Notes: generated by a model from the letters alone, not told the origin. 64,000 nt of DNA from Planctomycetota bacterium (GCA_038227875.1 JBBRPR010000004.1:1-64000); one strand, 5' to 3'; counted from the stretch's first letter, positions 554-29,614 are shown. Numbers and translations: made by a program.

Positions 554-596
554 GATGACGCCGAAGGCCGAGCGCTCGGCCGACGGCGTCGTCATT
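554..596. terminator. GC-rich stem-loop after first CDS
   Basis: atgacgccg-aa-ggccgagcgctcggcc-ga-cggcgtcgt nested inverted repeat just after the stop at 544. Confidence 0.4.
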
Positions 597-651
597 CTGA
601 ATTCATAACATCGTTGACGCGTACTATTTCCAAATCGCAACCGACCGCGAT

Positions 652-680
652 TTCTCCCCCCCTTTTCAAGGGGGGGAGAA
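652..680. repeat. Poly-C/poly-G palindrome
   Basis: ttctccccccc-ttttcaa-gggggggagaa. Confidence 0.6.
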
Positions 681-758
681 TTGGCGCCCCCGGATTCATC
701 ACTCATCAATCTGAATTCTGAATTTCTCCAACCACCGCGCTCAACCCAACCGCCCGCC

Positions 759-807
759 CGTGCGCGCCCCCACCTCTGGCCCCTGACCCCTGACCCCTGG
801 CCCCTCG
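759..807. repeat. Heptamer (TGACCCC/TGGCCCC) tandem array, same family as 53492 and 55042 elements
   Basis: ctggcccctgacccctgacccctggcccctcg preceded by cgtgcgcgc, matching the right arm of the 55042-55217 element. Confidence 0.75.
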
Positions 808-891
808 CGCGTCAGCGCGCCGCGCTACCCTCACGCGCCACCGCGCTTACCGCGCTTGCATACCCCGCGCGGCTGAAAGATAATCAAAACC

Positions 892-2862: not shown

Positions 2863-2895
2863 GGTGATCCTTTCCTCCGGAGACTGTGCGAAGTC

Positions 2896-4977: not shown

Positions 4978-4978
4978 C

Positions 4979-7069: not shown

Positions 7070-7074
7070 CGAAA

Positions 7075-7235
7075 CTGGTGCCACGGATGCGCGGACCCTT
7101 GAGCGTAGCGAAAGGGTCCGTTCATCCGTGCCGTTTCGCGTGGAACTCGCGGACGCGTCCGGGATGGCAACGCGTAACGCACGGATGAACGAATTTCTTC
7201 GCTACGCTTAGAAATTCGCGCATCCGTGGCACCAG
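7075..7235. repeat. Nested palindromic (REPIN/MITE-like) element, copy 1
   Basis: 19-bp terminal inverted repeat ctggtgccacggatgcgcg; two inverted units, each with an internal hairpin around a RAGCGTAGCGA loop; second copy at 42567-42710. Confidence 0.9.
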
Positions 7236-7258
7236 ATTGGGATGCGAATTTTCCATCA

Positions 7259-8554: not shown

Positions 8555-8609
8555 GGGACACTCTCCGCGATGCAATTGCACGGTGGCCAATGGGCCACCG
8601 CCGATTTCG

Positions 8610-9089
8610 TCAGGCCGGGCGCAGCACCTTGCTCATCAGCAGCGCCGCGCCATTCCGCCAGTAACTGACTTCCGTCATGATGCCGCGAATCAGGATTACG
8701 CCGCGGCCGCTTTCCTCGAGCAGGTTTTCCGGCGCGTCGGGATCGGGCAGATCTTCCTCGCGGAAACCCGGGCCTTCGTCTTCCACCAGGAACGTGATTT
8801 TATCGGGAGCACGGTACGCCCGCACGCGCGCCTTCAGCGCCGCGTTGGATTGATTGCCGTGCGTGACGGCGTTGACCAGCGCTTCGTCGAGCACCAGGCG
8901 GAAGCTGACTTCCTCCGAGGCATCGGCGAAGACACCCGACGCGGCGAGCGCGACCAGGAGTTGGTCGAGCACTTCGGTTTTGATTTCCTTGGTCGACGAA
9001 AACTCGCGGTCGAAAATCAGCGCTCCGCCGGGCGCGGGCGGCTCATCGGCTTTGACCAGATCGGTGGAGCGGCCCAGCTTCTTGCGCAT
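8610..9089 (-). CDS. Anti-sigma factor Ser kinase (RsbW-like HATPase)
   Basis: EALVNAVTHGN, VEDEGPGF, ESGRGVILI motifs. Confidence 0.88.
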   Translation of the reverse strand: MRKKLGRSTDLVKADEPPAPGGALIFDREFSSTKEIKTEVLDQLLVALAASGVFADASEEVSFRLVLDEALVNAVTHGNQSNAALKARVRAYRAPDKITFLVEDEGPGFREEDLPDPDAPENLLEESGRGVILIRGIMTEVSYWRNGAALLMSKVLRPA

Positions 9090-9116
9090 GGAATGAAGGC
9101 TAACGCGGCGGCGGCG

Positions 9117-10145
9117 CTACTGCAAGAACGCCTGCCGCGCGCGTTCGTAGGCGGCGATCAGGGGTTCGGGTTCGGCTTCGATTTTCTTCGCCTCGGCTTC
9201 GGCCCACTTGCCGGAGCTGATGCCCCATTCCCAGGTCAGGCGCGAGGTTTCGGAGAGCGGCTGCTCGGGGCGCCATTCGGGGATGTCGCGCTTCAAGGGG
9301 CTGGTGTCGAAGATGCCGTGGAAGCGCCAGATGTCGCGGCAGAATCCAATGCCGCTCCAATCCTTCAGGCGTTCGCAGAGAAAATCCGCGGGGAGTTCGA
9401 CGATGTTGGGGTTGCTGATGCCGATGCCCGCCGCGCTGCGCCGCGTCCATTCGGCTTGCGTCACGCACTCGTCGCCGACGCAGTTGTAGGTGCGGCCGAA
9501 GCAGTTCTCGTTGCCCACGGCAAACGCGATGGCGCGGCCGACGTCGCGCGTCGAACCGTGGTGACAGAGGACGCCGCCGGCGCAGACGATGATCGGGCGG
9601 CCGGCTTTCAGCAGCTTGAAGAACGTGCCGTCGCGGCACCACAGATTTCCCGAGAGCCACGCGCCGGGGCCGTCGGTGCTCGACGGCCGGATGTTCGTGC
9701 CCGCGACGAGGCCCTTGGCGCTGGCCTCCAAAACAATCTGTTCGAGTTCCTTCTTGTTGCGTCCGTACTCGGAGATGGGGCGACATTCGGTCTGGCTGCC
9801 GGCCGGGTGTTCGGCCAGCGGGCCGCCGAGCGCGCAGACCGTCGAGATGAAGACGAGGTGCTTGAGCCCGCGGTTGCGGACCTCGAGTAGATCGCGCATC
9901 TGCTGCGGCTTGAAGCAGAAGTAGTCGATGATCGCGTCAGGATTGACGTCGGCGAGGATTTTTTTCAGCGCGTCCTTGTCGTTGCGGTCGCCGGTGACCG
10001 GCGTGACGCTCTTGCCGCCGACATCCGCGACGCGAAACGGCGTTTTGCCGCGCGTCAGCGCGAAGGTTTCATGCCCGCGCTCGAGCAACGCGCGTGTGGA
10101 TTCCGTCGAGATCAGTCCGCTGCCACCGAGGATGAGCACGCGCAT
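9117..10145 (-). CDS. NAD-dependent epimerase/dehydratase family protein
   Basis: MRVLILGGSGLIS Rossmann motif; YGRNK (YxxxK). Confidence 0.85.
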   Translation of the reverse strand: MRVLILGGSGLISTESTRALLERGHETFALTRGKTPFRVADVGGKSVTPVTGDRNDKDALKKILADVNPDAIIDYFCFKPQQMRDLLEVRNRGLKHLVFISTVCALGGPLAEHPAGSQTECRPISEYGRNKKELEQIVLEASAKGLVAGTNIRPSSTDGPGAWLSGNLWCRDGTFFKLLKAGRPIIVCAGGVLCHHGSTRDVGRAIAFAVGNENCFGRTYNCVGDECVTQAEWTRRSAAGIGISNPNIVELPADFLCERLKDWSGIGFCRDIWRFHGIFDTSPLKRDIPEWRPEQPLSETSRLTWEWGISSGKWAEAEAKKIEAEPEPLIAAYERARQAFLQ

Positions 10146-10172
10146 ATAGAAAACCTCCGCAAATTGATGGAC

Positions 10173-10321
10173 TAAGAGCAGCGGCCGTTTGCTGCTCCTT
10201 GCTGCGACGATCACGATTCAGGCGCAAGCGGTTCTAATTTTTCATCCGGGAAGCGCGGCTTCTTGCACATTCAATGCGTTGAGCAAGGAGCAAGCATACG
10301 GCCGCTTGCTCCTTGACACCC
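10173..10321. repeat. Inverted pair of REP-like palindromes (caaggagcaagc...gcttgctccttg family)
   Basis: gagcagcggccgtttgctgctccttg at about 10176-10201 and caaggagcaagc-atacggcc-gcttgctccttgacacc at about 10284-10320; third copy at 52589-52632. Confidence 0.75.
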
Positions 10322-10331
10322 CATCGTAACT

Positions 10332-11894
10332 TTACTCCACGATCAGATTCTTCCCCGTCATCTGCGGCGAGGTTTTGATGCCGAGCAGGAAGGCGAGCGT
10401 GGGGGCGACGTCGGCGAGGCGGCCGGACTGGAGCTTCGCGTTTTTGTAGCGCTCGCTGACGAGATACACCGGCACGGGGTTGGTCGTGTGAGCGGTGTGG
10501 GGGCAGTTGTTGGCGTAGTCCCACATTTCTTCGGCGTTGCCGTGGTCGGCGGTGATCAACACTTCGCCGTTGACGGATTGAATCGCGGCGACGATTTCGC
10601 CGACGCACTGATCGACCGTCTCGACGGCCTTGATCGCCGCCGACTCGACGCCGGTGTGGCCGACCATGTCGCCGTTGGCGAAGTTGAGGATGATCAGATC
10701 GAATTTCTTCGACTGGATCGCGGCGACGGCTTTGGCGGTCAGTTCGGGGGCGCTCATCTCCGGCTGCAGATCGTACGTCGCGACCTTGGGCGAGGGCGCC
10801 ATGATGCGCTCTTCTTTCTCGAAGACCTTCTCGCGGCCGCCGGAGAAGAAGAACGTGACGTGCGGGTATTTTTCCGTCTCGGCCATGCGCAGCTGCGCCA
10901 GTCCGGCGGCGGCGGCGATCTCGCCCAGTCCGCCCTCCAGCACTTTGCTGGGGAAGGCGATCGGCGCGTCGAATTCGGCGCGGTAATCGGTCATCGTCAC
11001 CAGCTTGATCTTCGGCTGGTGCTTGCGCGCGAAGCCGTTGAAATCCCGCTTGAGCAGCACGTCGCACAATTCACGTGGGCGGTCGCTGCGGTGATTGAAG
11101 CTGATCAGCGCGTCGCCGTCCTGGATTGTCGCCAGCGGCTTGCCGTCGGCTCCGGTGATGATCGTGGCTTTTACGAATTCATCCGTCTCTTCGCGCGCAT
11201 AGGCGGCGCGAATGGCTTCCTGCGCGGACTTGGCGGTGAACGCCGAGACGCCGTCGACCATCGCCTTCCACGCCTGCTCGACGCGCTCCCAGCGCTTGTC
11301 GCGGTCCATGGCGTAATAGCGGCCGATGACCGTGGCGAACACGCCGGTGTCGTAGAGGTCCAGCTTGAGCTGCAGCTCGGCGAGGAACTGTTCGCCGGAT
11401 TTCGGCGGCGTGTCGCGGCCGTCGGTGAAGGCGTGGATCGCGACGCGGTCCTTGCGCAGTTCGTGCCGCGCGCACAGGCGAATCAGCGCGAAGTAGGCTT
11501 CGTCGAGCGAATGGACGCGCGCGGCAGAGATCAGTCCGAAGAGGTGGAGCCGCGCGCCAGTTTTCTTGACGTGCTCGATGGCCGACAGGATCGCGGGATT
11601 CTGGTCGAACGAGCCGTCGGCGACGGCCTGCGCGACTTCCATCAGGTCCTGCCAGACGATGCGGCCGGCGCCGAGGTTCAAGTGGCCGACCTCGCTGTTG
11701 CCCATCGTCCCCTTGGGCAGGCCGACATCGGTGCCGCAGGTGATCAGCGTGGAGCGCGGGTACGCGGCGCTCAGGCGATCGTAGTTGGGCGTCTTCGCCA
11801 GTTTGACGGCGTTGTGTTCCTTCTTTTCGCAGAGCCCCCAGCCGTCCATGACGACGAGCATGACGGGGCCCTGGCGTTTCGCGGTTGTCGGCAT
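10332..11894 (-). CDS. gpmI: 2,3-bisphosphoglycerate-independent phosphoglycerate mutase
   Basis: MDGWG, MGNSEVGH, TDGRDT, GRYYAMDRDKRWER, AETEKYPHVTFFF, DMVGHTG, TADHGNAE. Confidence 0.98.
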   Translation of the reverse strand: MPTTAKRQGPVMLVVMDGWGLCEKKEHNAVKLAKTPNYDRLSAAYPRSTLITCGTDVGLPKGTMGNSEVGHLNLGAGRIVWQDLMEVAQAVADGSFDQNPAILSAIEHVKKTGARLHLFGLISAARVHSLDEAYFALIRLCARHELRKDRVAIHAFTDGRDTPPKSGEQFLAELQLKLDLYDTGVFATVIGRYYAMDRDKRWERVEQAWKAMVDGVSAFTAKSAQEAIRAAYAREETDEFVKATIITGADGKPLATIQDGDALISFNHRSDRPRELCDVLLKRDFNGFARKHQPKIKLVTMTDYRAEFDAPIAFPSKVLEGGLGEIAAAAGLAQLRMAETEKYPHVTFFFSGGREKVFEKEERIMAPSPKVATYDLQPEMSAPELTAKAVAAIQSKKFDLIILNFANGDMVGHTGVESAAIKAVETVDQCVGEIVAAIQSVNGEVLITADHGNAEEMWDYANNCPHTAHTTNPVPVYLVSERYKNAKLQSGRLADVAPTLAFLLGIKTSPQMTGKNLIVE

Positions 11895-11921
11895 TCTTGA
11901 ATTCCTGTTTTCGGAGCGATC

Positions 11922-11957
11922 AAAAAATAAATGCTAAACGAATCGTTTAGCATTTAT
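11922..11957 (-). terminator. Intrinsic terminator downstream of beta-propeller gene
   Basis: 14-bp perfect stem ataaatgctaaacg/cgtttagcatttat with a T-run on the minus strand. Confidence 0.7.
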
Positions 11958-11984
11958 CTCTGAGCTGTGTCCGTCCTTTAAGCG

Positions 11985-13574
11985 TTAGTCTTTTTTCGGA
12001 GCGTCTTTCGGCGCATCCTTCGGCGCGTCTTCCTTGGGCGCGTCCTTCGGAGCATCCTTGGGGGCGTCGTCGCCACCGCCGGCCTTCTTACCAATGATCT
12101 TGACCGGAGCCGACGGGTCAACCACCTTCTGCGGATCCTTGACCACGCGCAGGCCGGTGTCGCGGGTCTTTTCCTTCAAGCTCACCACGCGGCCATCGTT
12201 GGTCACGGCATAGACGCGCGCTTCGCCGCCGGCCTTGCTCCAGGCGTTCTGGTATTCGAGGTACATCGCGAAGAATCCGCCTTCGACCTTCCACTTCACC
12301 TTGCCGGTGGTCTTGTCGACGGCTTCGATGCCGTTGTAAGCGGGGAAATCCTTGGTGGCATTCAGGCCGGCATAGACGAAGTCGGGGCCAGCGGTAACGA
12401 CGCCGGCGGCGGGAAGGTCCCACGCCACGTCGAACGTTTCCGGCGATTCAGCCGAACCGCGGGAAGACTTGGCGGGCGTGACTTCCAGCGCGTGCAGATT
12501 GCCATCGTTGGTCGCGGCGTAGACGTAGGGCGTCTTCGGTTCGTCGGCGAAAATGGTGCCGACCACCGGGTAGCCCGACGGGAACGACCACTTCTTCTTC
12601 AGCGTCAAACGGTCGAGACAGTAGACGTAGCCATTCTTGCAGCCGACAAAAACGCTGCCGGCCTGCGTCGACGTGCTGGGCGTAACCGTCAGCGTCGTCG
12701 TCGGGGTATCCTGCAGCGTGTACGGTTCGCGTTCTTCGGCGTCGCGGGAGACGGCGTAGACGTTGGAATCTTCCGACGTGTAGTAGAGCAGGTTGTCGCG
12801 CAGTTCGATCGGCTGGGTCACCGAGGCGTTCTTGATCGGGCTGCTCTTGTGGAACTGATAGTAGATGTCGAATTCCGGCGCGGAGAAATTCTTCGATTCA
12901 ATCGGGTTCTGGACGAAGTAGCTCAGGCGGCCGCGGATGATCATGGCGTTGATGCGGCCGTCCCAGGACCCGGCGTAGATCGACTCCATGTTCTGCCACT
13001 TGCGGGTGTAGTCCTTGGGGTACGACGGCGGATCGACGACCAGCGGCGAGGTGCTCATCACGAAATTCGGGATCAGGCGCCAGCGGATGTCGCCACCGTT
13101 CTTTTCGATGCCGACGAGGAAGTTCTTCACGTTGACGACGACGTTGTTGTTGGAAACGCTGGGCGCGTAGCGGATCGCGTCTTCCAGTTCACAGCGCCAG
13201 CGTTCATAGCCGTCGGCGCGGCGCACGGCGACCAGGAAGTGCTTGGCCGTCTCCAGCAGCACGAGGTCCTTGAACACCCAGCCTTTGATGATCGGGCCGG
13301 TGCCGTTGTCCAGATGCGGCGAATACCACTCGACGTCGAGGTCCATCTGCGGCGGCATGTTGATGGCGCGCGCAGCGACCTCCGCATCGACGCTCTGGGC
13401 GATCGTGGTGTTCTGCTTCTGCTTCTCCTCGTAAACCGTGCGCGGTTTGGCATTGTCTTCCGCGAAGGCTGCCTTGAGCGGGAAGAGCAGAGCCGTGCAG
13501 GCCAGCAGGGCGCCGAGCATAAGACGATTCATCCACGATCCTCCGGAATTGCTGTTCGATTGCACTGCCTTCAA
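11985..13574 (-). CDS. Secreted PQQ-like (BamB-type) beta-propeller protein with C-terminal DAPK repeats
   Basis: Signal peptide; repeated xDxxTGxxxW-type motifs (RRADGYERW, EKNGGDIRW, DKTTGKVKW); tail DAPKDAPKDAPKEDAPKDAPKDAPKKD. Confidence 0.75.
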   Translation of the reverse strand: MKAVQSNSNSGGSWMNRLMLGALLACTALLFPLKAAFAEDNAKPRTVYEEKQKQNTTIAQSVDAEVAARAINMPPQMDLDVEWYSPHLDNGTGPIIKGWVFKDLVLLETAKHFLVAVRRADGYERWRCELEDAIRYAPSVSNNNVVVNVKNFLVGIEKNGGDIRWRLIPNFVMSTSPLVVDPPSYPKDYTRKWQNMESIYAGSWDGRINAMIIRGRLSYFVQNPIESKNFSAPEFDIYYQFHKSSPIKNASVTQPIELRDNLLYYTSEDSNVYAVSRDAEEREPYTLQDTPTTTLTVTPSTSTQAGSVFVGCKNGYVYCLDRLTLKKKWSFPSGYPVVGTIFADEPKTPYVYAATNDGNLHALEVTPAKSSRGSAESPETFDVAWDLPAAGVVTAGPDFVYAGLNATKDFPAYNGIEAVDKTTGKVKWKVEGGFFAMYLEYQNAWSKAGGEARVYAVTNDGRVVSLKEKTRDTGLRVVKDPQKVVDPSAPVKIIGKKAGGGDDAPKDAPKDAPKEDAPKDAPKDAPKKD

Positions 13575-13577
13575 CGT

Positions 13578-13874
13578 TCAGTCCTTCTTACGCAACTGCG
13601 AGAGATTGACGCCGTGACGCAACTCGTAGGCTTTCATCCGCTCAATCGCCGCCAGATCCCTGGAGATCGTTTGCGACAGCTTGTAGATGTACGGCTTGTT
13701 GTCCAGCCGCGCCTTCAAGTCGTCCAGTATGCGTTGCCACGATCCTTCGTAGAGTTGATCCTTCAGATCGATCAAAACCCGTTCATAGGATTCCAAACGT
13801 TGAAGGAAGACCTCCGGAGGAACGTCCAAGGCCGGATCAAAATCCGGCTCGGCTGGACTTGCCTCGTTCACCAC
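13578..13874 (-). CDS. Hypothetical helical protein
   Basis: 98-aa ORF preceded by GGGGAG RBS; ends 4 bp before the next gene. Confidence 0.7.
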   Translation of the reverse strand: MVNEASPAEPDFDPALDVPPEVFLQRLESYERVLIDLKDQLYEGSWQRILDDLKARLDNKPYIYKLSQTISRDLAAIERMKAYELRHGVNLSQLRKKD

Positions 13875-13983
13875 TGCTCCCCCATTGCTAAATCGTTGCT
13901 GGATTGTAGTTACGTACGAAATTATGTCAAACAGTGGAAAATGGAAGGGGCGCGATTGTGGCGGAAAGCGAGTAAACGGGCCG

Positions 13984-14060
13984 TTTTGAGTTTTGAGTTT
14001 TGAGTTTTAAGTTGTGATGCCGCAATAGTTTACAATTCAAAACTGAGAACTCGAAACTCA
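13984..14060. repeat. Inverted heptamer arrays (TTTTGAG)n / (AAACTCA-like)n
   Basis: ttttgagttttgagttttgagttttaag ... aattcaaaactgagaactcgaaactca. Confidence 0.8.
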
Positions 14061-14069
14061 CCACTGCCG

Positions 14070-14621
14070 TTAATGTATTTCCAATCCGCGTTTAAGGCTT
14101 ACGGCGGACTTGCTCGCCCATTGGCTGACTTCCTGCACGGCGCCGTCGGGAAGGAGGCGTGAGCCGGCGACGGCCAGGGGGCCGGCGAGCCTGGAATCCG
14201 TCCAGAGATTGCACTTGGGATAAATGGAGACGCTGGCGGCGACGATGATCAGCGCCAGCACGCTCCCTTTTAGTGCTCCAAAGATGCCGCCGAGGATGCG
14301 GTCGTGTGCGCGGCGCTTGTCGCGTTCGTCTTTGGGGAGTCCGGTTTCGGTACGGACTTCCGCCCACGCGGCGAGCATGCGCAGCGAAAAGCCGACGAGT
14401 CCCACCACGAAGAGAAAGCCAATCAGGTTTGCGCGGAAGAGATCGGAGGTGACGTTTTCGACCAGGCGCGCGCCGATGGCCGGTGCCAGCGTCATGCCGA
14501 TCGCGATACCAAATCCAATGCTCGCCACGCCGGCCACCTGCCAGAGCAACCCGCGCCGCCAGCCAAGGAACGTCTGAAGAATCAGGAACCCGACGATGAC
14601 GAGGTCGATCGACCAACCCAT
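14070..14621 (-). CDS. CvpA (colicin V production) family membrane protein
   Basis: IDLVIV..GWRRGLLWQV N-terminus; DRILGGIFGALKG motif; 4 TM. Confidence 0.85.
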   Translation of the reverse strand: MGWSIDLVIVGFLILQTFLGWRRGLLWQVAGVASIGFGIAIGMTLAPAIGARLVENVTSDLFRANLIGFLFVVGLVGFSLRMLAAWAEVRTETGLPKDERDKRRAHDRILGGIFGALKGSVLALIIVAASVSIYPKCNLWTDSRLAGPLAVAGSRLLPDGAVQEVSQWASKSAVSLKRGLEIH

Positions 14622-14803
14622 GTTGCCACCCGCTCAAGTATGTGTGCGCCGCGATGCCGAACAAAAGCCGTGCATCCCAATATCGGCCGAACACGGCGGG
14701 AAGTTGAGGGGCGAGTTTTTTTACGCGGGCGTTACACAAGGAATGGCCTGGCCGCGGTCTAGTTGACGGTCGCCAATTTCGGCGACGACGAGGAGGAGAT
14801 CGT

Positions 14804-16054
14804 ATGAATCGAATTCCGCTTACCTTCGTGCTGGGTTTGGCGCTGATTGTATTCTCGACGGTTCACGCGGCGGAGTACGTCGCTCATGAGTGGGGCACGT
14901 TTACGTCGGTGCAGGGCACCGATGGCGTGCTGCTGGAATGGCGGCCGCTGGCGACGTCGGAACTGCCGGACTTTGTTTATAATCGCACGAAAAATAGCAC
15001 GCGGCAGCAGCCGCCCGGTTTCGGACCGGTCAACAAATACGAGGTGGCATCGACGCAGCGCATGGAAACGCCGGTGCTCTATTTTTATCCCACGGAGGAG
15101 ATGACCGTCGACGTCTCGGTCAAATTTCCGCAGGGCGCGATCACCGAGTGGTACCCGATGGTCCGCTCAATCGGTCCCCAGGGCATCATCGATCCCAAAG
15201 TGCTTAAAGATGGAGTTTTGGATTGGGGCAAGGTCCGGCTGTTCCCCGCTGAAATGTATCCGGAATTCGCGAAGGACCTCCCAGCGGCCAATTCCGGCAC
15301 GAACTACTTCGCCGCGCGCGAGACGGATGCTGCTATCGTCCGCGTGGGTACGACGCGCGGGCCGGTGCATTACGAGCACGAAAAGTTTCTCTTCTACCGC
15401 GGCGTCGGGTCCTTTAAGGCGCCGGTGGAAGTACAGGGCGGTGGTGATCACGGCATCCGTGTGACCAACCACGACGCCGCTGCGATCCCCGCGTTCTTCG
15501 TGCTGACGGTCGGTGAGAACACGGCCAGCTTCACTTCCGGTGGAAACCTGGAACCGGCAGCGGTGAAGAACGTGCCCGCGGGAAATCCGGTAGCAAAGAC
15601 CACGCCCGAAGAGACCGCCGACGCGCTGAGCGTCGAGATGCAAGCCGCGCTGCTCAAGCAGGGCCTCTACGCCAGGGAAGCCGCCGCGATGGTGAAGACC
15701 TGGCGCGATTCGTGGTTTCTCGAGAAGGGCACGCGCATTCTTTATATTCTGCCCGACAGCTGGACCGAACGCACGCTGCCGCTGACGCTCGCGCCGGCGC
15801 CGAAGGAGCTCAAGCGTGTCATGGTCGGCCGCGCCGAACTGATCACGCGGCAGATGGAGACGGATGTCGCGCAGCAGATTGCCGCGTTGAGCTCCACGGA
15901 TTTCGAAACGCGCGAGAAGGCCACGAAGACGCTCACGGGACTCGGCCGCTTCGCCGAACCGTCTCTTCTGCGCGTCGTCAACACGACCGACGACGCCGAA
16001 GTGAAATCGCGCGCGACGAAGTTGATTGAGGAGCTGCATGCCAGCGTGAAGTGA
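14804..16054 (+). CDS. Secreted conserved hypothetical protein with C-terminal HEAT-like repeat
   Basis: GAGGAG RBS; signal peptide; HEWGTFTSVQG, RMETPVLYFY, EKFLFYRG, RVMVGRAE motifs; LSSTDFETREKATKTL HEAT-like tail. Confidence 0.75.
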   Translation: MNRIPLTFVLGLALIVFSTVHAAEYVAHEWGTFTSVQGTDGVLLEWRPLATSELPDFVYNRTKNSTRQQPPGFGPVNKYEVASTQRMETPVLYFYPTEEMTVDVSVKFPQGAITEWYPMVRSIGPQGIIDPKVLKDGVLDWGKVRLFPAEMYPEFAKDLPAANSGTNYFAARETDAAIVRVGTTRGPVHYEHEKFLFYRGVGSFKAPVEVQGGGDHGIRVTNHDAAAIPAFFVLTVGENTASFTSGGNLEPAAVKNVPAGNPVAKTTPEETADALSVEMQAALLKQGLYAREAAAMVKTWRDSWFLEKGTRILYILPDSWTERTLPLTLAPAPKELKRVMVGRAELITRQMETDVAQQIAALSSTDFETREKATKTLTGLGRFAEPSLLRVVNTTDDAEVKSRATKLIEELHASVK

Positions 16055-16086
16055 CTTCGTTCCCGGCGAGCCGCCCGGACTACAAA

Positions 16087-16605
16087 CTACTTCCGGCGGG
16101 ATTGCTTGGCCGCCGGTTTCTTTGCCTTGTGGGGCTGCTGAGCTTTGTGCGGTTTGTGCGGCCGGGGCGGCTCGTTCGAGAGCAGTTTCGACGTTTCGAT
16201 CCAGCACGGCGAGGCCGAGCCGAACGTAAATCCCACGCGCAGGTAAAAACCGCGTGCGGTGTTGCGGCTGTCGAGATAGAGGCGCGAGAGGCCGCGCTTT
16301 TCGGCGAGCTCCGCGATGTGGCGCATCATCTCCTTGCCGTAGCCCTTGCCTTGAACGCCGGAGGCAGTGACCAGGTCGTCGACGAATAAATGCTCCCCGC
16401 GTGCCAGCGTGTGCGCCAGGCGCACGCCCGCCAGGACCACCCACTCTCCGTCCACCGCGCCGCCTAGGAGAAAATACGATTCTTCCTGCTGACGGTGAAC
16501 TTCCTCGATGAACGTGTCGGCCTGAATGCGGTCGCGCAGTTCATGCATCAGCGGAAAGGCGGAGGCAATATCTTCATCGGTGGTCAACTCACGGATCACG
16601 AACAT
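16087..16605 (-). CDS. GNAT family N-acetyltransferase
   Basis: LFVDDLVT..VQGKGYG acetyl-CoA motif A; ARGFYLRVGF. Confidence 0.9.
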   Translation of the reverse strand: MFVIRELTTDEDIASAFPLMHELRDRIQADTFIEEVHRQQEESYFLLGGAVDGEWVVLAGVRLAHTLARGEHLFVDDLVTASGVQGKGYGKEMMRHIAELAEKRGLSRLYLDSRNTARGFYLRVGFTFGSASPCWIETSKLLSNEPPRPHKPHKAQQPHKAKKPAAKQSRRK

Positions 16606-16649
16606 TCAGGAACCTCCGCGTAACAGAAAGGAATGGGTGGGGCGCGAAT

Positions 16650-17138
16650 TCAGGTGGAGACTTTTTTCTCAATCGGTTCGACGATGATGCGGTTGCCTTC
16701 GACCTGGATGACCTTGATCGGCGTGTCCGCGGCGACGAACTTGCCTTCGGTGACGACGTCGATGCGGCGCGTGCCGACTTGCGCGGCGCCGGCGGGGCGC
16801 AGTGGCGTCAGCGACTTGCCTTCCATGCCGACGAGCTCCGTCAGCGGCAGTGCGTCGGGGGAGTTCTGGGTGCTCGAGGCGATTTCGCTGCGGTGCATCA
16901 GCGGGCTGCGCTGCAGGAAGCCGATGCCGATGTAGAGTGAAATCGGAAAGAGCGCCAGGTCGATGCCGGTCATCAGCCAGCCGAACGATTCGCTGTAGCG
17001 GAAGCCCATCCACGCACTAGCCACGCCGAAGCCCATTGCCACAATCGTGAAGGCGTGGAGCGACGGCGTCAGCATCTCGAGAAAAATGCCGCAGATCATC
17101 AAGACGGTGAAGACGATCGACCAGAAGCGGGGGTCCAT
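16650..17138 (-). CDS. Short NfeD family protein (TM + OB-fold)
   Basis: LEM..P TM motif; LVGMEGKSLTPLRPAG..IDVVTEGKFV..IKVIQVEGNRIIV; ATG at 17138 preferred over the 479-aa ORF, which overlaps the upstream gene. Confidence 0.88.
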   Translation of the reverse strand: MDPRFWSIVFTVLMICGIFLEMLTPSLHAFTIVAMGFGVASAWMGFRYSESFGWLMTGIDLALFPISLYIGIGFLQRSPLMHRSEIASSTQNSPDALPLTELVGMEGKSLTPLRPAGAAQVGTRRIDVVTEGKFVAADTPIKVIQVEGNRIIVEPIEKKVST

Positions 17139-21124: not shown

Positions 21125-23119
21125 ATGAGTGACAAGCTGTCGTGGGGCATCCTGGGAACAGGCAACATCGCCAAGACCTTTGCCAAAGGCGTCGCGGGTT
21201 CGAAATCAGGGAAAGTCGTTGCCGTCGGCAGCCGCTCGCAGGCCTCCGCCGATAAGTTCGCCGATCAGTTCAGCATTCCCAAACGACACGCCAGTTACGA
21301 AGCGCTGCTGGCCGACAAGGACGTGCAGGCCGTTTACATTGCGACGCCGCATCCGCTGCACGCCCAGTGGGCCATTGCCGCGGCCGAAGCGGGCAAGCAT
21401 ATCCTCTGCGAAAAACCGATCGGACTCAATCATCCCGAAGCGATGGCGATCGTCGAAGCCGCTCAACGCAACAAGGTCTTCCTGATGGAAGCGTTCATGT
21501 ACCGCTGCCATCCGCAGATTCAGAAAGTCGTGGAGCTGATCCGCGCCAAGGCCATTGGCGACGTCAAGATGATCCAGGCCACGTTCAGCTTTCATGCGGG
21601 CTTCAATCCGGAAGGCCGGCTCTTCGCCAACAAGCTCGCCGGCGGCGGCATTCTCGATGTCGGCTGCTATGCCACCTCGATCTCCCGGCTGGTGGCCGGC
21701 GCGGCGCTGGGCAAGGATTTCGCCGATCCCATCGGCGTGCGCGGCTTCGGCCACCTGGGCGCAAGCAACGTGGACGAGTACACGGCCGCGGTGCTGAAAT
21801 TCCCCGGCGACATCATCGCGCAGGTTTCCACTGGTGTCGCGCTGAACCAGGAGAACGTCGTCCGCATCTACGGCACGCAGGGCAACATCCTGATCAACGA
21901 TCCGTGGATTCCCAACCGCGACGGCGGCTCGACGAAAATCCGCCTGAACAAGAACGGCCAGGCGTCCGAAGAAATCACCTGCGAAACCAAGGACGGCCTG
22001 TATTCGCTGGAAGCCGACACCGTCGCCGCGAACGTGGCGCGCGGCCAGGCGCCTTCTCCGGCGATGAGCTGGGACGATACGCTGGGCAACATGAAGACCA
22101 TGGACCAGTGGCGCGAACAGATCGGGCTGGTCTACGACGCCGAATTGCCGGAAAATCTGAAGGTGCCGGTCTCAGGCAAGCCGCTGGCGGTGCGGAAGGA
22201 CGCGGAGATCAAGACCGGGAAGATCCCCGGCATCGACAAGCCCGTCTCGCGCTTGGTGATGGGCTGCGACAACCAGCCGACCGCCGCGCACGGCTTCGTG
22301 ATGTTCGACGATTTTTTCGAACGCGGCGGCAACACGTTCGATACCGCATTTGGTTATGGTGGCGGCAAATACGAAACGATGCTCGGCCAGTGGATCGGCG
22401 CGCGCAACCTGCGTGAAAAAGTCGTGGTGATCGGCAAGGGCGCGCACACGCCCAATTGCAATCCGAAGGCGCTCACCGATCAGCTGCTTATCAGCCTTGA
22501 ACGCCTGAAGACCAGCTACGTCGACGTCTACATGCTCCACCGCGACAACCTGGACATCCCCGTCGGCGAATTCATCGATGTGCTCAACGAACACAAGCGC
22601 GCCGGACGGATCAAGGTCTTCGGTGGATCCAACTGGAGCATCGAGCGCGTGCAGGCCGCCAACGATTATGCGAAGTCCAAGGGCCTGGCCGGATTTACGA
22701 CCGTGAGCAACAACTTCAGTCTCGCGCGGATGGTCAATCCCGTCTGGGCCGGCTGCATCGCCGCGTCGGATGCGAAGTCGCGCGAATGGTTCACGAAAAC
22801 GCAGACCGTATTGATGCCCTGGTCGAGCCAGGCGCGCGGCTTCTTCACTGATCGCGCCAATCCCAACGACACATCGGACAAGGAATTGGCCAATTCGTGG
22901 TACTCCGACGACAACTGGCAGCGCCGCGACCGTGTGATCGAGATGGCGAAGAAGAAAAACGTGCTGCCGATCAACATCGCGCTGGCGTACGTGCTCTGCC
23001 AGCCGTTCCCGACGTTCCCGCTGATCGGACCGCGCGTACTGGCCGAAACGCGCACGTCCGCGCCCGGCATGAGCATTGAGCTGACGCCCGCGGAGTTGAA
23101 GTGGTTGAATTTGGAGTGA
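21125..23119 (+). CDS. Gfo/Idh/MocA oxidoreductase fused to aldo/keto reductase
   Basis: WGILGTGNIA, HILCEKP, GGGILDVGCY; then FDTAFGYG, SLERLKTSYVDVYMLHRD, GGSNWS. Confidence 0.92.
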   Translation: MSDKLSWGILGTGNIAKTFAKGVAGSKSGKVVAVGSRSQASADKFADQFSIPKRHASYEALLADKDVQAVYIATPHPLHAQWAIAAAEAGKHILCEKPIGLNHPEAMAIVEAAQRNKVFLMEAFMYRCHPQIQKVVELIRAKAIGDVKMIQATFSFHAGFNPEGRLFANKLAGGGILDVGCYATSISRLVAGAALGKDFADPIGVRGFGHLGASNVDEYTAAVLKFPGDIIAQVSTGVALNQENVVRIYGTQGNILINDPWIPNRDGGSTKIRLNKNGQASEEITCETKDGLYSLEADTVAANVARGQAPSPAMSWDDTLGNMKTMDQWREQIGLVYDAELPENLKVPVSGKPLAVRKDAEIKTGKIPGIDKPVSRLVMGCDNQPTAAHGFVMFDDFFERGGNTFDTAFGYGGGKYETMLGQWIGARNLREKVVVIGKGAHTPNCNPKALTDQLLISLERLKTSYVDVYMLHRDNLDIPVGEFIDVLNEHKRAGRIKVFGGSNWSIERVQAANDYAKSKGLAGFTTVSNNFSLARMVNPVWAGCIAASDAKSREWFTKTQTVLMPWSSQARGFFTDRANPNDTSDKELANSWYSDDNWQRRDRVIEMAKKKNVLPINIALAYVLCQPFPTFPLIGPRVLAETRTSAPGMSIELTPAELKWLNLE

Positions 23120-23352
23120 GGTGTTTGGGCGAATAAGAATGGTGGCTTCGGTGCGCCGCGGAAAGCGGCGCACCGACCCCATTGCAGGACTATCATAGAA
23201 CTCTACTAAACACGACTCTCCAGAATTTTGCTATCCATTCGCAAGAAATCAGCCCATCTTTCATCTAGAGTGTCGATTATCTAAATTCTCCCCATAAATT
23301 TATCCTCAATTCCACCAAATAAATTAACGCTTCGATCCTAAAGATGGAATTT

Positions 23353-23382
23353 TTGACAAAGCTAACCTTCATGTTGTACATT
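23353..23382 (+). promoter_or_regulatory. Sigma70-type promoter upstream of mini-AlaRS
   Basis: TTGACA (23353-58)-N18-TACATT (23377-82). Confidence 0.65.
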
Positions 23383-23398
23383 GTCTTGGTCGCCCGGC

Positions 23399-24322
23399 AT
23401 GAGGCTGGGCATTTCAAGGAGGTTGCACTATGTCAGTGCTAAACGCATCGAAGATGTAGTCCGGAAGCAATTTGAGCTTTCCGGTTTTCCGTTTGTCGTT
23501 GATCAGAATGTAATTCCCGAAGACGATTCCACCCTGTTCATCTGCTCCGGCATGCAGCGCTTGAAGCAGCGATTCCTACAGCCGGACGGTGGCAAATACG
23601 GTTCCCTCCAATCCTGCATCCGCACCAGCGACCTCGAACACGTCGGCGACGGTTCGCATTTAACCTATTTCGAAATGGTCGGAAACTTTTCCTTCGGCCG
23701 CAATGATTACGAGGTTTCCGTCGACCTCTGGGATCGCATTCTGCGCGAGCTCCGCGTTCCGGTCAGCCACGTCAACGTTCATCCATCCAGAGTTGATCAC
23801 CGGAAATTGTGGACAAGTCGCGGCCACCTCGTGAGAGACTGCGAGGAATGCGAATGGACCGACGGCGACATCGGCGGCCAGTGTTGCGAAGTATTTTTTG
23901 ACGGACTTGAAATTGGGAACCTGGTCAATCCGCTCGGGCATTCCACGGACGTGGGGTTCGGTTGGGAACGCCTTCATATGCTGGTCGAGGGCAAGCGCTC
24001 CGTCGGCGATACGAGTTTGTTCCGACAGGATCTCCATCCCATTGTGTCAGACCACATCCGCACTCTAACCGTGCTGTGGAGGAACGGCGTCCGGCCCGGA
24101 GGAAAAGGGCGCGGCGGAATCTGCAGGCGTTTGCTGCGCAGAATTCTCGATCATGAACTTCCGTCAACCGAGTTCGATCACTGGATTGAGCAGGAGAGAA
24201 AGCTGCGTGAAGATCGAATTCGCAGTGCGAGGCGATGCTGGAAGCGATTCCGGAATCGGCCGCCGCAGTTCTGGCTGGACACGTTTGGAATCATGCCGGA
24301 GGAGATTCGATTATTAAGCTGA
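23399..24322 (+). CDS. Truncated alanine--tRNA ligase-like protein (aminoacylation core only); start uncertain
   Basis: DDSTLFICSGMQ, motif 2 QSCIRTSDLEHVGDGSHLTYFEMVGNFSFG, LEIGNLV, motif 3 DVGFGWERL, SDHIRT..GVRPGGKGRG..RRLLRR; no editing or C-Ala domain. Confidence 0.88.
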   Translation: MRLGISRRLHYVSAKRIEDVVRKQFELSGFPFVVDQNVIPEDDSTLFICSGMQRLKQRFLQPDGGKYGSLQSCIRTSDLEHVGDGSHLTYFEMVGNFSFGRNDYEVSVDLWDRILRELRVPVSHVNVHPSRVDHRKLWTSRGHLVRDCEECEWTDGDIGGQCCEVFFDGLEIGNLVNPLGHSTDVGFGWERLHMLVEGKRSVGDTSLFRQDLHPIVSDHIRTLTVLWRNGVRPGGKGRGGICRRLLRRILDHELPSTEFDHWIEQERKLREDRIRSARRCWKRFRNRPPQFWLDTFGIMPEEIRLLS

Positions 24323-24598
24323 CGATCTGCGCTGTGCACTTCGCCGGCCTCGAAATTCGGGGCTGGCGGAGGCCGGCGGGACACGAAATTCACACGCCAT
24401 GCAGTTTGTTAAATAACAACATAACAGCGCCTAAAAGCGGCCGTCTTCTCAATTAATCCATTTCCTACTAACACGTTAAACATACGAATCCTATTTCTCC
24501 GACACACTTCCTTATTACGAACTTAATACGGAAGTGGTCTGATGCTTTCGATACTTAGTGCGGGACCACCTCGATCGCACTGCGTAGAGGAGAGCCAC

Positions 24599-25420
24599 AT
24601 GAGTAAGACCTATTACCGCTCGATCTGGATATCCGACATGCATCTGTGTTCGCGCGATTGTCGCGTCGAACATCTCTTGAGCTTCCTCGAACATACCAAA
24701 TGCGAGTACCTCTATCTCGTCGGAGATTTTATCGACGTCTGGCAGCTCCGCCGCCGCTGGTACTGGCCGCAGTCGCTCAACAATATCATCCACCGCGTGC
24801 TGGCCAAGTCGCGCAAAGGGGCGAAGGTCACGTACATCCCCGGCAACCACGATGAACTCTTCCGCAACTTCGCCGGCTGCGAATTTGGCGGCGTCAAGAT
24901 CCGCATGAAAGTCGTTCACATCACCGCCGACGGCCGGCGGCTGCTGGTCATGCATGGCGATGAATTCGACGTGATCGTGCAGTGCAACAAGTGGCTGGCC
25001 CTCCTCGGCAGCGCGGCCTACGACTACCTGGTACTGCTCAACCGCGTCCTCAACGTCTTCCGCCGCCGCCTGAACCTGCCCTACTGGTCGCTCTCCGCGG
25101 CGATCAAACGAAAGGTCAAGAACGCCGTGAAGTACGTCGGCAGCTTCGAAACCGCGATGGTCCGCGAAGCGAAGAAGCAGAATGTCGACGGGATTGTCTG
25201 CGGTCATATTCACTGCCCGGTGATCAAGGACATCGACGGGCTGCTCTACTGCAACACCGGCGACTGGGTCGAGAACTGTACGGCAATCGTCGAAACGGTC
25301 GAAGGCGACATCAAGATCGTGAACTGGCTGGACGAATGGGACGAAAAGACGCCGCCGCCGGCGGAGGTCGAGGAAGAAGAGCACGCGGATCTCTCGGAGC
25401 TACTCGTTACGGTGCAATGA
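24599..25420 (+). CDS. Metallophosphoesterase, PlcP / UDP-2,3-diacylglucosamine diphosphatase-like
   Basis: ISDMHL, LVGDFID.W, WYWPQ, PGNHD, HGDEFD, YWSLS, CGHIH, NTGDWVE. Confidence 0.88.
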   Translation: MSKTYYRSIWISDMHLCSRDCRVEHLLSFLEHTKCEYLYLVGDFIDVWQLRRRWYWPQSLNNIIHRVLAKSRKGAKVTYIPGNHDELFRNFAGCEFGGVKIRMKVVHITADGRRLLVMHGDEFDVIVQCNKWLALLGSAAYDYLVLLNRVLNVFRRRLNLPYWSLSAAIKRKVKNAVKYVGSFETAMVREAKKQNVDGIVCGHIHCPVIKDIDGLLYCNTGDWVENCTAIVETVEGDIKIVNWLDEWDEKTPPPAEVEEEEHADLSELLVTVQ

Positions 25421-26643
25421 TTATTATACCCCGAAAGTTTCTCACGTTATCGCTGAAAGTCGGCGCCGGGCATCTCCGCGCCGCGCAGGCCACGGAAGTC
25501 GCGATCCGCGAGCGCTACGACGATGCGGAGACCGCGCATTTCGATGTCCTCGACCTGACCACGCGCTTCTACCGTAGCATGTTCACCACGATGTACGGCG
25601 CGATGATCGCGCGGTTTCCGTTCGCGTGGAAAACGATTTACGAGCAGACGCGCAAGCAGAAGCTCACTGGTTTCTCCAAGCGCAGTGCGGCGTGGCTGAC
25701 AGCGCGCAATTCGCGCCCGCTCATGAAGGCCATCGACGATTACGCTCCCGATGTCATTATCTGCACGCATTTCACGGCGGCTGAGGCCGTAGCTTCTGCC
25801 CGGCTCCGCAAGGAACTGGCCATTCCCGTCTGCGTCGTGCTGACCGATTACGATCTCCATTCCGCGTGGCTGCACCGCGGCGTCGATTGTTATTGCGTCG
25901 GGACTGAGCAGATGGCTGCGGACCTCCGCCGCCTTGAACTTTTTGGAGCTGACATTCACGTCACGGGTATTCCCATTCATCCCGTGTTCGCGCAGGAATT
26001 TCCCCACCGCCAGGAGATGCGCACGCAGTTGAAGCTCGACCCGGAAGCGCCGACGATCCTGATCACCGGCGGCGGCTGTGGTCTGGGTGCGCTGCACGAC
26101 AACGCGCGAATTCTGCTCCAGAATTTTAAGTCTGCGCAGATCATCGCCGTGGCCGGCGGCAATGAGCAGATGCGTCTGCAGCTCGAAGGACTGTCGCGCG
26201 AGTGTCCGCGCCTGATCGCGCGCGGTTACGTTTCGAACATGCATGAATACATGGCGGCCAGCGATCTGATCGTGACCAAGCCCGGCGGCCTGACGTCCAG
26301 CGAGTGTTTGGCGATGGGATTGCCGGCGGTGGTCAGCCGCCCGATTCCGGGACAAGAAGAGCACAACTGTGAATACCTGGTTTCGAATCAGGTGGCGCTG
26401 CGCGCGCGGAATACGCCGGAGCTGCTGGTCTCCGTGCGTGCGCTGCTCGAGGACGAAGGCCTGCGCCACTACATGAGCGCGCGGGCGCGGAGCCTGGCCA
26501 AACGCCGCGCCGCATTCAGCGTCGCGGAGATCGCGTGGGATTTGACTACGCATCCGGACAAGGCCGACACGCGTCCCGTTCCCGCGCCGCTGGTGGTGCC
26601 TCCCGGAAGCGTGACGCCCGTCGCGTTGGAACGGACGGCGTAG
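25417..26643 (+). CDS. GT28 MGDG-synthase/UgtP-like diacylglycerol glycosyltransferase
   Basis: GAGHLRAA, ICTHF, LTDYDLH..W, TGIPI, TKPGGLTSSE, PIPGQEEHN; ATGA overlap with the upstream gene. Confidence 0.9.
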   Translation: MIIIPRKFLTLSLKVGAGHLRAAQATEVAIRERYDDAETAHFDVLDLTTRFYRSMFTTMYGAMIARFPFAWKTIYEQTRKQKLTGFSKRSAAWLTARNSRPLMKAIDDYAPDVIICTHFTAAEAVASARLRKELAIPVCVVLTDYDLHSAWLHRGVDCYCVGTEQMAADLRRLELFGADIHVTGIPIHPVFAQEFPHRQEMRTQLKLDPEAPTILITGGGCGLGALHDNARILLQNFKSAQIIAVAGGNEQMRLQLEGLSRECPRLIARGYVSNMHEYMAASDLIVTKPGGLTSSECLAMGLPAVVSRPIPGQEEHNCEYLVSNQVALRARNTPELLVSVRALLEDEGLRHYMSARARSLAKRRAAFSVAEIAWDLTTHPDKADTRPVPAPLVVPPGSVTPVALERTA

Positions 26644-28453: not shown

Positions 28454-28825
28454 ATGAAGTTGCCGCGTGTACATCTTTTAACCGCGGTCCTGATTCAAAT
28501 CGAACTGGCTGCGGTCGTGGGGCTCAACGCGGTTTCGTACGTTCGTAACGATCTTGCGAATGCCAATGAACCTGGGCCACGATGGCATGTGTATGGTCGA
28601 CCATTCATGGTGTACGCGATTGCATTTCAGTGTTCCGGCGAAATGGGCGGCCACGATCCGGAATACACGCGTTGGGATTATTTCGAATGCTCGCGCGAAG
28701 TCTACTTCGTGCCGATGGCGATGGGTTTCAATCTGGCCCTCGCGGCGGGCCTTGTGTCTGTCACATACATGCTTTGTGAACGTAAGTTATCACCTGCATG
28801 TCGCACAGTCTGGATTCGCCACTAA
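28454..28825 (+). CDS. Small two-TM protein family, copy B
   Basis: RVHLLTAVLI, YGRP, NLALAAGLVSVTYMLCE; 3' end overlaps the ThiF gene by 36 bp. Confidence 0.7.
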   Translation: MKLPRVHLLTAVLIQIELAAVVGLNAVSYVRNDLANANEPGPRWHVYGRPFMVYAIAFQCSGEMGGHDPEYTRWDYFECSREVYFVPMAMGFNLALAAGLVSVTYMLCERKLSPACRTVWIRH

Positions 28826-29614
28826 CGCCTGGCTCTCCAATTTGAAGTCGAGCACGGAGTATGAAATATTTTGCGGCACGTCGCGCCGACCCATCAATAG
28901 ATTTATTCCGAGACAAAGCATCATATTGGAACCAATGGACGCGGTTGGATACATGGAAGCGTGACCGCCTTCCAATGAGATTGTACGGTCGATGTTTTCC
29001 ACATCCACCGGCTTCGTGGCGCGGTCGTTGTTGTCAAAACGATAGTAATCAGCCCAAACTTTGGACTTATTTGAAATGCGATTGGAGCAATTAAGACAGG
29101 GACTGGAGTTGCCGTCCATCCAGGAGATCCGGGTGGTTGTTCCGGAGAGTACGCACGTTCCTCCGAGGATCGCGGGTTTACGCAGGCGTTGGCAGGCATC
29201 GACGGCGAAAAATGTGGTGTGCGGTTGATCGACAACAATAAAGACGAGATCAGCTTTGCCAACCAAGGCGCCAAATCGGCGGCGCTCATTAAGTATATTG
29301 AAGTCGTGTGTCTCTATCCTGGAGCGAAGGTTATGTGCCGACAGGGCAGTTCGGGCCGCATCAGCCTTGCGTTGTCCGACGTCGGCTGCCGTATACAAGA
29401 CCTGGCGTGTCAGGTTTGATGGCGAAACACGATCGCAATCCACTCCCACAATTTCCGCAAATCCCATCCGCGCGGCCGCTAATGCGAGGTGAGAACCATT
29501 TCCGCCAAGCCCAACAATCAGCAGAGATTTTTGCGTGAGTTCTGGCGTGAAACTGGCATCAAACTCACCGATAAGATTCTGAGTTTCAAAAATATCGCCC
29601 ACGTCGGATTCCAT
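28790..29614 (-). CDS. ThiF/MoeB/HesA (E1-like) adenylyltransferase
   Basis: IVGLGGNGS, DCDRVSPSNLTRQ, VGQRKA, Zn motifs CLNC and CATC; AT-richer than flanks. Confidence 0.88.
   Translation of the reverse strand: MESDVGDIFETQNLIGEFDASFTPELTQKSLLIVGLGGNGSHLALAAARMGFAEIVGVDCDRVSPSNLTRQVLYTAADVGQRKADAARTALSAHNLRSRIETHDFNILNERRRFGALVGKADLVFIVVDQPHTTFFAVDACQRLRKPAILGGTCVLSGTTTRISWMDGNSSPCLNCSNRISNKSKVWADYYRFDNNDRATKPVDVENIDRTISLEGGHASMYPTASIGSNMMLCLGINLLMGRRDVPQNISYSVLDFKLESQALVANPDCATCR

Follow-up and report, generated by a model that had tools for sequence, protein, structure and literature searches.

Alanyl-tRNA synthetase (AlaRS) is the textbook example of tRNA identity that depends on just one base pair of the acceptor stem. 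Among the forms known to charge tRNA, the smallest are about 460 residues long, namely the E. coli fragment N461 and TuAlaRS of Tupanvirus (461 aa), which is reported to charge tRNA-Ala and microhelices although it has neither an editing nor a C-Ala domain and lacks the canonical Asn/Asp pair (PMC10036535). Here we describe a still shorter protein, mini-AlaRS, encoded in a 64,000-nucleotide stretch of DNA from a Planctomycetota bacterium (GCA_038227875.1, JBBRPR010000004.1:1-64000; hereafter the window, meaning the whole stretch). It has 307 residues, and its relatives are carried by very large tailed phages and a few bacteria. From its conserved residues, predicted fold and genomic contexts, we put the probability at roughly one half that it is an editing-free minimal AlaRS, which would make Ala-AMP and charge tRNA-Ala at its acceptor stem.

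Like TuAlaRS, which works on the acceptor stem alone, the mini-AlaRS family includes virus-encoded proteins devoid of editing and C-Ala domains, and the Asn/Asp residues that read G3:U70, not strictly kept in TuAlaRS (PMC10036535), appear not to be so in the mini family either. On the published description of TuAlaRS, the mini family is set apart by its length (about 290–310 aa), by deletions throughout both domains, by a helical tRNA-recognition (ATL) domain of only about 95 residues, by its occurrence in tailed phages and a few bacteria, and by a function that is predicted. The canonical aminoacylation fragments, E. coli N461 and A. aeolicus AlaRS453 (1riq), have the same fold end to end, the same pocket residues and the same GRG-Y-RR--RR helix, but mini-AlaRS is shorter by about 110–150 residues. 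As judged by alignment with E. coli AlaRS (positions count the initiator Met), the losses are spread throughout: loops 186–207 and 218–233, the first helix 262–283, and about 320–365 of the helical domain. The small-AlaRS type (bioRxiv 10.1101/2023.05.29.542759; model NF002436) is also shortened and devoid of C-Ala; however, it keeps the editing domain beside the catalytic and ATL parts. AcmF of ascamycin biosynthesis is likewise a stand-alone truncated homologue with catalytic and tRNA-recognition parts only. It has lost most of the ATP- and alanine-binding residues (including N219Q and D232E) and lies in a biosynthetic cluster (PMC12945691), whereas mini-AlaRS keeps the adenylate-forming residues and has unrelated housekeeping or phage genes as neighbors. 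In size, the protein resembles the alpha subunit of glycyl-tRNA synthetase (GlyRS; GlyQ, about 300 aa), and no other class II core is as closely related to that of AlaRS. GlyQ lacks an ATL part and relies on GlyS.

An intact and conserved derivative of AlaRS

The mini-AlaRS gene is clearly intact, conserved, and derived from AlaRS. Its product scores 85.9 bits against Pfam PF01411 (tRNA-synt_2c; gathering cut-off 30.3), although the 552-position profile is matched only in parts, along two stretches. It stays below the cut-offs of models for longer enzymes: TIGR00344, the equivalog of full-length alanine--tRNA ligase (86.5 bits versus 457.05), and NF002436, of the 595-aa type (76 bits versus 529). 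The Pfam scan of the protein returned no tRNA_SAD (editing), DHHA1 (C-Ala) or PF02091 match. As the sequence-only reading of this DNA had suggested should be checked, a complete alaS exists elsewhere in the genome: it lies on another contig (C30) and codes for 905 aa with tRNA-synt_2c, tRNA_SAD and DHHA1. The only other tRNA_SAD match in this genome is a 677-aa frame; thus, no stand-alone editing partner was found. Likewise, none of five viral records with mini-AlaRS contains a second AlaRS piece or a tRNA_SAD domain.

A homologue search limited to proteins of 168–538 aa gave 388 matches at E ≤ 0.001 from 933 candidates. There are at least 120 homologues of the same length: among the best 120 of the 388, the 119 outside the query's own cluster are 254–393 aa long and 52–66% identical. 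One, from a Planctomycetota metagenome-assembled genome, is named "alanine--tRNA ligase-related protein"; the databases label members generically. When 1.84 billion cluster representatives were searched with HMMER without restriction, 41 clusters came up at E ≤ 1e-30, many being fragments; the complete members have about 265–330 aa with identity down to about 30%, and canonical AlaRS follow from about E 1e-20. Candidate fusion forms did not hold up: P0164, which has 1603 aa and is matched in 21 stretches, turned out to be a tandem repeat in translation and contains no Pfam domain, and P0028, P0113, P0132, P0159 and P0169 (350–403 aa) carry PF01411 only. A scan of genome contigs with the family alignment gave 80 loci at 26–34% identity, all canonical alaS, and was uninformative for family neighborhoods.

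Across an alignment of 25 members (53–67% identical), 53 columns are invariant. We compared nine gene pairs for the ratio of nonsynonymous to synonymous divergence (dN/dS). The sole pair with unsaturated synonymous divergence, L119 versus L120, gave 0.16 at dS 0.72, and L116 versus L119 gave 0.26 at dS 1.25. Synonymous sites were saturated in four pairs (three of the four with the window gene, and L118 versus L086), the fourth window pair (versus L116) is near saturation (synonymous difference, pS, 0.74), two pairs with L115 are invalid (an internal stop displaced the codon count), and L120/L121 are identical and yield no value.

These observations leave next to nothing for the scenarios in which the gene is a decaying alaS fragment or one half of a split AlaRS. 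The low score against the full-length model would suit either. However, decay is refuted by the intact frame, the homologues of similar length among those listed, the invariant columns, the purifying selection indicated by the dN/dS of 0.16, and the near-universal retention of pocket residues described below. A split enzyme is refuted by the 905-aa alaS and by the search for a stand-alone editing or C-Ala partner, which found none. The earlier description of the protein as stand-alone is thereby upheld.

The catalytic domain and active site

In hhalign comparisons, residues 11–252 of the window protein (numbered from ATG 23399) match positions 3–320 of a 24-sequence canonical AlaRS profile (E 9.1e-47). 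The class II motifs and the DHIRT and GRG..RRLLRR stretches first noticed in the raw sequence are indeed present in the translation. A MAFFT alignment with the AlaRS of E. coli and that of this genome shows that the alanine/ATP pocket residues and both class II motif arginines are retained. Conservation was counted over 149 sequences (the window protein, 141 database proteins of 240–400 aa, and 7 viral ones). Seven residues are kept in all of them: E164, E171, V176, D184, G186, G188 and R191 (E. coli E184, E210, V215, D236, G238, G240 and R243, respectively). R75 and N174 (E. coli R70 and N213) are kept in 148, and W153 (E. coli W171) in 147. Given this intact active site, the protein should very probably form alanyl-adenylate.

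A reduced tRNA-recognition domain

An AlphaFold2 model from the 25-sequence alignment (predicted local distance difference test, pLDDT, 86.6; predicted template modeling score, pTM, 0.82) aligns 297 residues, 11–307, with AlaRS aminoacylation fragments. The best matches are A. aeolicus AlaRS453 (1riq, chain 1–402, Z 25.8) and E. coli AlaRS (3hxu, chain 1–415, Z 25.1), followed by the A. fulgidus AlaRS–tRNA complex (3wqy, chain 59–463, Z 19.7). In contrast, GlyRS alpha subunits align only over residues ~12–225 with Z ~15. The model reaches E. coli positions 415–417; thus, the earlier description as a catalytic core only needs correcting, and the last 95 residues, which had been read as the beginning of the helical domain followed by a basic tail, form a reduced ATL domain. 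By the structure alignments, its helices (214–228, 237–249, 260–278, 289–296 and 300–306) correspond to the canonical domain with the middle removed.

The basic tail of a protein of about 300 residues, another feature picked out from the sequence, is borne out: residues 212–307 contain 21 K+R versus 12 D+E (net about +8), whereas the catalytic part, at net −10, is acidic. All 25 aligned sequences have a basic C-terminal part (+1 to +10), and this arrangement fits an RNA-binding role. The GRG-Y-RR--RR helix is kept (KGR.YVCRRLLRR), with R244, R247 and R248 present in 122, 134 and 122 of the 149 sequences. Further downstream, MAFFT places the conserved F291–E302 motif (T295 in 138/149, G297 in 146/149) on the canonical FRLYDTYGFP motif, which contains E. 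coli D400. Position 294, which would correspond to D400, is Glu in 76 and Asp in 42 sequences (either in 118/149); the window protein has Asp. In E. coli AlaRS, N303 and D400 are the residues reported to read G3:U70 (PMC10036535). The equivalence of the two motifs, which is based on the MAFFT and structure alignments, is probable, at a strength limited by the alignments weighed below.

Phage homologues and their tRNA context

In IMG/VR, we found seven members, 43–57% identical, on contigs of 125–533 kb, one of them on a 134-kb genome (L092, G415) with terminal repeats that is rated 100% complete. The GenBank phage collection holds one more, 38% identical, in the uncultured phage LR745206.1 (634,780 bp; locus L170), and none among its cultured phages. 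The family has no PHROG of its own and matches the PHROG of full-length AlaRS weakly. Three ESM Atlas look-alike clusters fit this picture and serve as leads only: among members with a record, viruses make up 50% of a 306-aa cluster (78 members) and 79% (Uroviricota) of a 280-aa cluster (118 members), and bacteria 90% of a 281-aa cluster (70 members).

The viral genes tend to lie among tRNA genes. Five viral records carry 10–30 tRNA genes each, and at seven of eight viral loci 2–29 lie within 6–8 kb of the mini-AlaRS gene. In 17 kb searched per locus, there are 29 at L092, 8 each at L086 and L090, 6 plus a tmRNA at L087, 5 at L089, 2 at L088 and 0 at L091; in 12.6 kb of L170 there are 13. In L092 a tRNA-Ala gene is found 0.7 kb upstream of mini-AlaRS, in L170 one is found 0.37 kb downstream of it, and at least five of the eight viral records code for tRNA-Ala. 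Five of the six phage tRNA-Ala genes inspected have G3:U70 and A73; for the remaining one, the ARAGORN drawing has the G-U pair shifted down the stem by one step.

Other neighbors there are of kinds typical for large phages and include NAMPT, phosphoribosyl pyrophosphate synthetase, ThyX, DNA ligase, HNH/homing endonucleases, an endolysin-type peptidase and a Ro60-like protein. An all-against-all comparison of neighbors at 17 loci found no conserved partner gene. L170 features a second small class II core directly upstream of mini-AlaRS and a Thg1-like protein downstream (Table 1), and such phages may more widely carry miniaturized synthetases. In the same locus, homology to the family N-terminus extends upstream of the first ATG/GTG/TTG, behind an in-frame stop, which hints at a start codon of an unusual kind or at recoding of the stop. 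A tRNA with a CTA anticodon in the 207-kb record G412 may likewise point to recoded stop codons. AlaRS also charges tmRNA; a general link of mini-AlaRS to tmRNA was rejected, as only two of the eight viral records have a tmRNA above the Rfam cut-off.

Proposed function and its alternatives

In the favored scheme, the class II domain, having lost loops and kept all alanine/ATP-binding residues, would form alanyl-adenylate, and the alanyl group would then be passed to tRNA-Ala's acceptor stem. The family would be at home beside tRNA genes in very large tailed phages as part of a translation-support module, and the bacterial chromosomal copy would be a lone, horizontally acquired gene with a normal alaS elsewhere in the genome. 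The transfer step is the less secure one: it is suggested by the basic acceptor-stem helices, the D400-like motif, the phage tRNA-island context and the TuAlaRS precedent. A bolder proposal, which we hold tentatively and with somewhat less confidence, is that this is the smallest natural aminoacyl-tRNA synthetase: a self-sufficient enzyme of about 300 residues, free of an editing domain, with a 95-residue latch that reads the tRNA-Ala acceptor stem, carried by phages and captured by bacteria. Inside their tRNA islands, phages would then carry it so that alanine charging is maintained or altered while they infect the host, and a few bacteria would have captured it as a second, inhibitor-independent AlaRS. 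The bacterial copy could be a backup AlaRS, a source of resistance to AlaRS inhibitors, or a neutral passenger still under selection.

Several observations weigh against charging of tRNA-Ala. Shorter fragments of E. coli AlaRS make adenylate and are not known to charge tRNA, and every AlaRS known to charge tRNA exceeds the window protein by about 150 residues or more. Even N461, longer by about the same number of residues, is reported to bind tRNA-Ala poorly, with a dissociation constant above 32 µM (PMC10036535); a 300-residue form may therefore not bind tRNA alone. Without an editing domain, mischarging with Ser and Gly is expected. As for the D400-like motif, the tail-only hhalign finds the same register at an E-value (0.075) that is weak alone, and a different MAFFT run with a single canonical row puts the tail elsewhere. 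At the N303-like position, Asn is present in just 74 of 149 sequences and the window protein has Gly. The proximity of tRNA genes is only modest evidence, as such genes are dense throughout these phages; moreover, within 8 kb of the mini gene L088 has just two and L091 none. In bacteria, tRNA genes are absent from the window's 64 kb and from L116.

The sequence-only reading had leaned toward a non-tRNA acceptor, a preference that the results do not support. Adenylate of alanine (or Gly/Ser) would then be passed to a small molecule, carrier protein or nucleotide, as the intact active site would allow. The length, far below the 461 aa of the smallest AlaRS known to charge tRNA, the likeness to other truncated synthetase paralogues, and the solitary bacterial copies in varied contexts with no tRNA genes nearby all speak for this. 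Yet no conserved neighbor in the 17 loci would supply an acceptor or pathway, nothing would account for the persistence of the basic acceptor-stem helices and D400-like motif, and the phage copies lie in tRNA arrays along with genes for Thg1, tmRNA and further synthetases. We consider this alternative unlikely, though the strongest of the competitors. Less probable again is a dependence on a separate protein for tRNA binding, as GlyRS alpha needs beta, the enzyme being inactive on tRNA alone. The GlyRS-alpha-like size and architecture, the related fold and the weak tRNA binding of N461 without C-Ala would accord with it; against it, the 17 loci share no adjacent gene, the five viral records hold no tRNA_SAD piece, and in the genome only alaS and the 677-aa frame match that domain, though a partner of some other family may lie elsewhere in it. 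Slightly less probable still, the protein may not activate alanine at all, acting instead as a transferase that uses Ala-tRNA-Ala or as a decoy or regulator that binds tRNA-Ala or an AlaRS inhibitor. AcmF, a truncated AlaRS-like protein reported to have turned into an Ala-tRNA-dependent transferase (PMC12945691), provides the model, and the retained tRNA-binding elements would suit this role. However, the near-invariance of N174, D184 and both motif arginines contrasts with AcmF, in which most ATP/alanine-binding residues, the counterparts of N174 and D184 among them, were lost, and no biosynthetic cluster surrounds the gene. Thus, the editing-free minimal AlaRS remains our preferred reading.

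Bacterial copies and probable horizontal transfer

In the window's phylum, matches at E ≤ 1e-40 were found in 2 of 401 sampled genomes, namely the window's own and G126, whose copy is partial and lies at a contig end. None of the 243 high-quality genomes in that sample has the gene, nor, by the family profile, do any of 16 other genomes of the same family (74–95% complete); in the order of G126, it is present in 1 of 15. The mini-AlaRS gene has a GC content at third codon positions (GC3) of 0.65, compared to 0.75–0.83 for most neighbors, three of which are equally low; at L116 the values are 0.80 for the mini gene and about 0.95 around it. Together with the AT-rich flanks (GC 0.43–0.44 over 23100–23549 and 0.47–0.49 over 24300–24749, versus about 0.60 in the surroundings) and the patchy distribution, this suggests that the bacterium probably acquired the gene horizontally, as had been surmised from the sequence.

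A quick IQ-TREE phylogeny with Shimodaira–Hasegawa approximate likelihood-ratio (SH-aLRT) support only was built from 81 rows: the window protein, 8 viral, 7 metagenomic and 41 chosen database members, and 24 canonical N-terminal parts. These rows are the whole of the sample, and the outgroup is bacterial only. The mini family forms one clade against the 24 canonical rows (support 100, long branch). Of the viral rows, seven branch near the base or as lineages of their own. The window protein, joined to P0002 and P0003 with support 97, belongs to a 32-row clade (support 93) in which all seven metagenomic rows and the 533-kb record L086 are found as well; four of these metagenomic rows sit among ordinary bacterial genes. 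The tree is in line with horizontal acquisition, and transfer from phage to bacterium is plausible, although the unresolved basal forks and the bacterial-only outgroup leave that direction unestablished.

The contexts of the bacterial-type loci are unrelated to one another: DegT aminotransferase, a DnaA-like protein, KAS and methylmalonyl-CoA mutase at L116; RecD2 at L114; 5'-3' exonuclease and MlaE at L119; and glutamate dehydrogenase at L121. In the window, the neighbors are a GFO/IDH/MocA–aldo-keto reductase fusion, a metallophosphoesterase, a monogalactosyldiacylglycerol (MGDG)-synthase-like glycosyltransferase, an amine oxidase, ThiF and TopA. Same-family genomes share the downstream metallophosphoesterase alone, plus the glycosyltransferase in one genome. 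In five of these genomes, the GFO/aldo-keto reductase gene is not adjacent to the metallophosphoesterase gene, so an empty site cannot be defined. Contigs of four runs gave short pieces only, none bridging the gene or an empty site. No PADLOC family model matches mini-AlaRS. The metallophosphoesterase and glycosyltransferase genes may form a small lipid-related operon, and the ThiF-family gene has a GC3 of 0.55, as low as that of the mini-AlaRS gene (Table 1).

Gene boundaries and flanking sequence

The open frame runs from 23381 to 24322, and its start codon is uncertain. Counted from TTG 23381 the product has 313 aa, and from TTG 23423 it has 299 aa; the homologues P0002 and P0003 begin opposite the latter codon, and residues 1–10 of the model have pLDDT < 50. 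TTG 23423 directly abuts a strong Shine–Dalgarno-like AAGGAGG. The ATG at 23430, 7 nt after that element, is out of the mini-AlaRS frame and opens a frame of only nine codons (TAG 23457–23459). Of the promoter proposed for the gene, the TTGACA/TACATT pattern is present as described, but the match alone is not significant: a scan of 22900–24800 gave 2 such sites versus 1.2 ± 1.4 in shuffled sequence. If this promoter is used, TTG 23381 is excluded as a start.

An Rfam scan of 22500–25000 returned no match, T-box leaders included, the 5' region shows no unusual RNA fold (z −1.24), and no convincing repeats flank the gene. A 176-nt metatranscriptome contig matches 23606–23781 at 96% identity, which is no proof of transcription. 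In metagenome run X2, contig pieces of the flanking genes differ from the window by 0–2 letters, and those on the mini-AlaRS gene (23366–24342 region) by 22 of 489 and 12 of 402; either a second, related copy is present or the gene diverges faster between strains.

Table 1. Coordinates of the mini-AlaRS gene, its parts and its surroundings in the window, and of selected features in phage records.
Record	Feature	Coordinates	Strand	Remarks
Window	GFO/IDH/MocA oxidoreductase + aldo-keto reductase fusion	21125–23119		664 aa; directly upstream of mini-AlaRS
Window	AT-rich upstream spacer	23120–23398		GC 0.43–0.44
Window	Sigma-70-like pattern TTGACA-18 nt-TACATT	23353–23382	+	10/12 matches; pattern only
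Window	mini-AlaRS coding sequence	23399–24322	+	307 aa from ATG 23399; stop 24320–24322; PF01411 match
Window	Shine–Dalgarno-like AAGGAGG	23416–23422		
Window	Class II catalytic domain, internal deletions versus canonical AlaRS	23429–24028	+	residues ~11–210; hhalign; pLDDT mostly >85
Window	Reduced helical tRNA-recognition (ATL) domain	24032–24319	+	residues 212–307, ~95 aa; structure alignment
Window	Conserved C-terminal motif F291–E302 FWLDTFGIMPEE	24269–24304	+	placed by MAFFT on the canonical FRLYDTYGFP motif
Window	AT-rich downstream spacer	24323–24541		GC 0.47–0.49
Window	Metallophosphoesterase + MGDG-synthase-like glycosyltransferase	24542–26643		overlapping frames; together in relative L134
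Window	ThiF-family E1-like protein	28790–29614	−	weak PADLOC E1-E2 matches (best E 2.4e-15)
L170	Class II core (tRNA-synt_2b, E 2.3e-14)	5193–5933		246 aa; directly upstream of mini-AlaRS
L170	Family N-terminus homology before first start codon	5944–6078		behind in-frame stop
L170	Thg1-like tRNA-His guanylyltransferase	7373–8212		downstream of mini-AlaRS
L092	29-tRNA array around mini-AlaRS	1–16897		nearly complete set
L143 (G412)	ARAGORN tRNA, anticodon CTA (labelled Pyl)	1501–1574		amber-suppressor type; phage record with mini-AlaRS
L087 (G410)	tmRNA	11063–11411		above Rfam cut-off
G412:C1	tmRNA	150804–151169		above Rfam cut-off

Implications

In the library searched, we found no paper that describes AlaRS-like proteins of about 300 aa as a family, nor one on a mini-AlaRS from phages; the supplementary tables of the huge-phage survey PMC7162821 lay outside the search and may list such genes, and the survey reports phage synthetases in general. 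If mini-AlaRS does charge tRNA, it would be the smallest natural enzyme of the AlaRS kind, direct evidence of how small a protein suffices for charging with alanine, and engineers would gain from it a compact synthetase scaffold that is free of editing. If it does not, it would represent a new synthetase-derived enzyme with another acceptor. The family would be a defined addition to the translation modules of large phages, which are poorly understood, and for this planctomycete genome the gene marks a probable exchange with phage.

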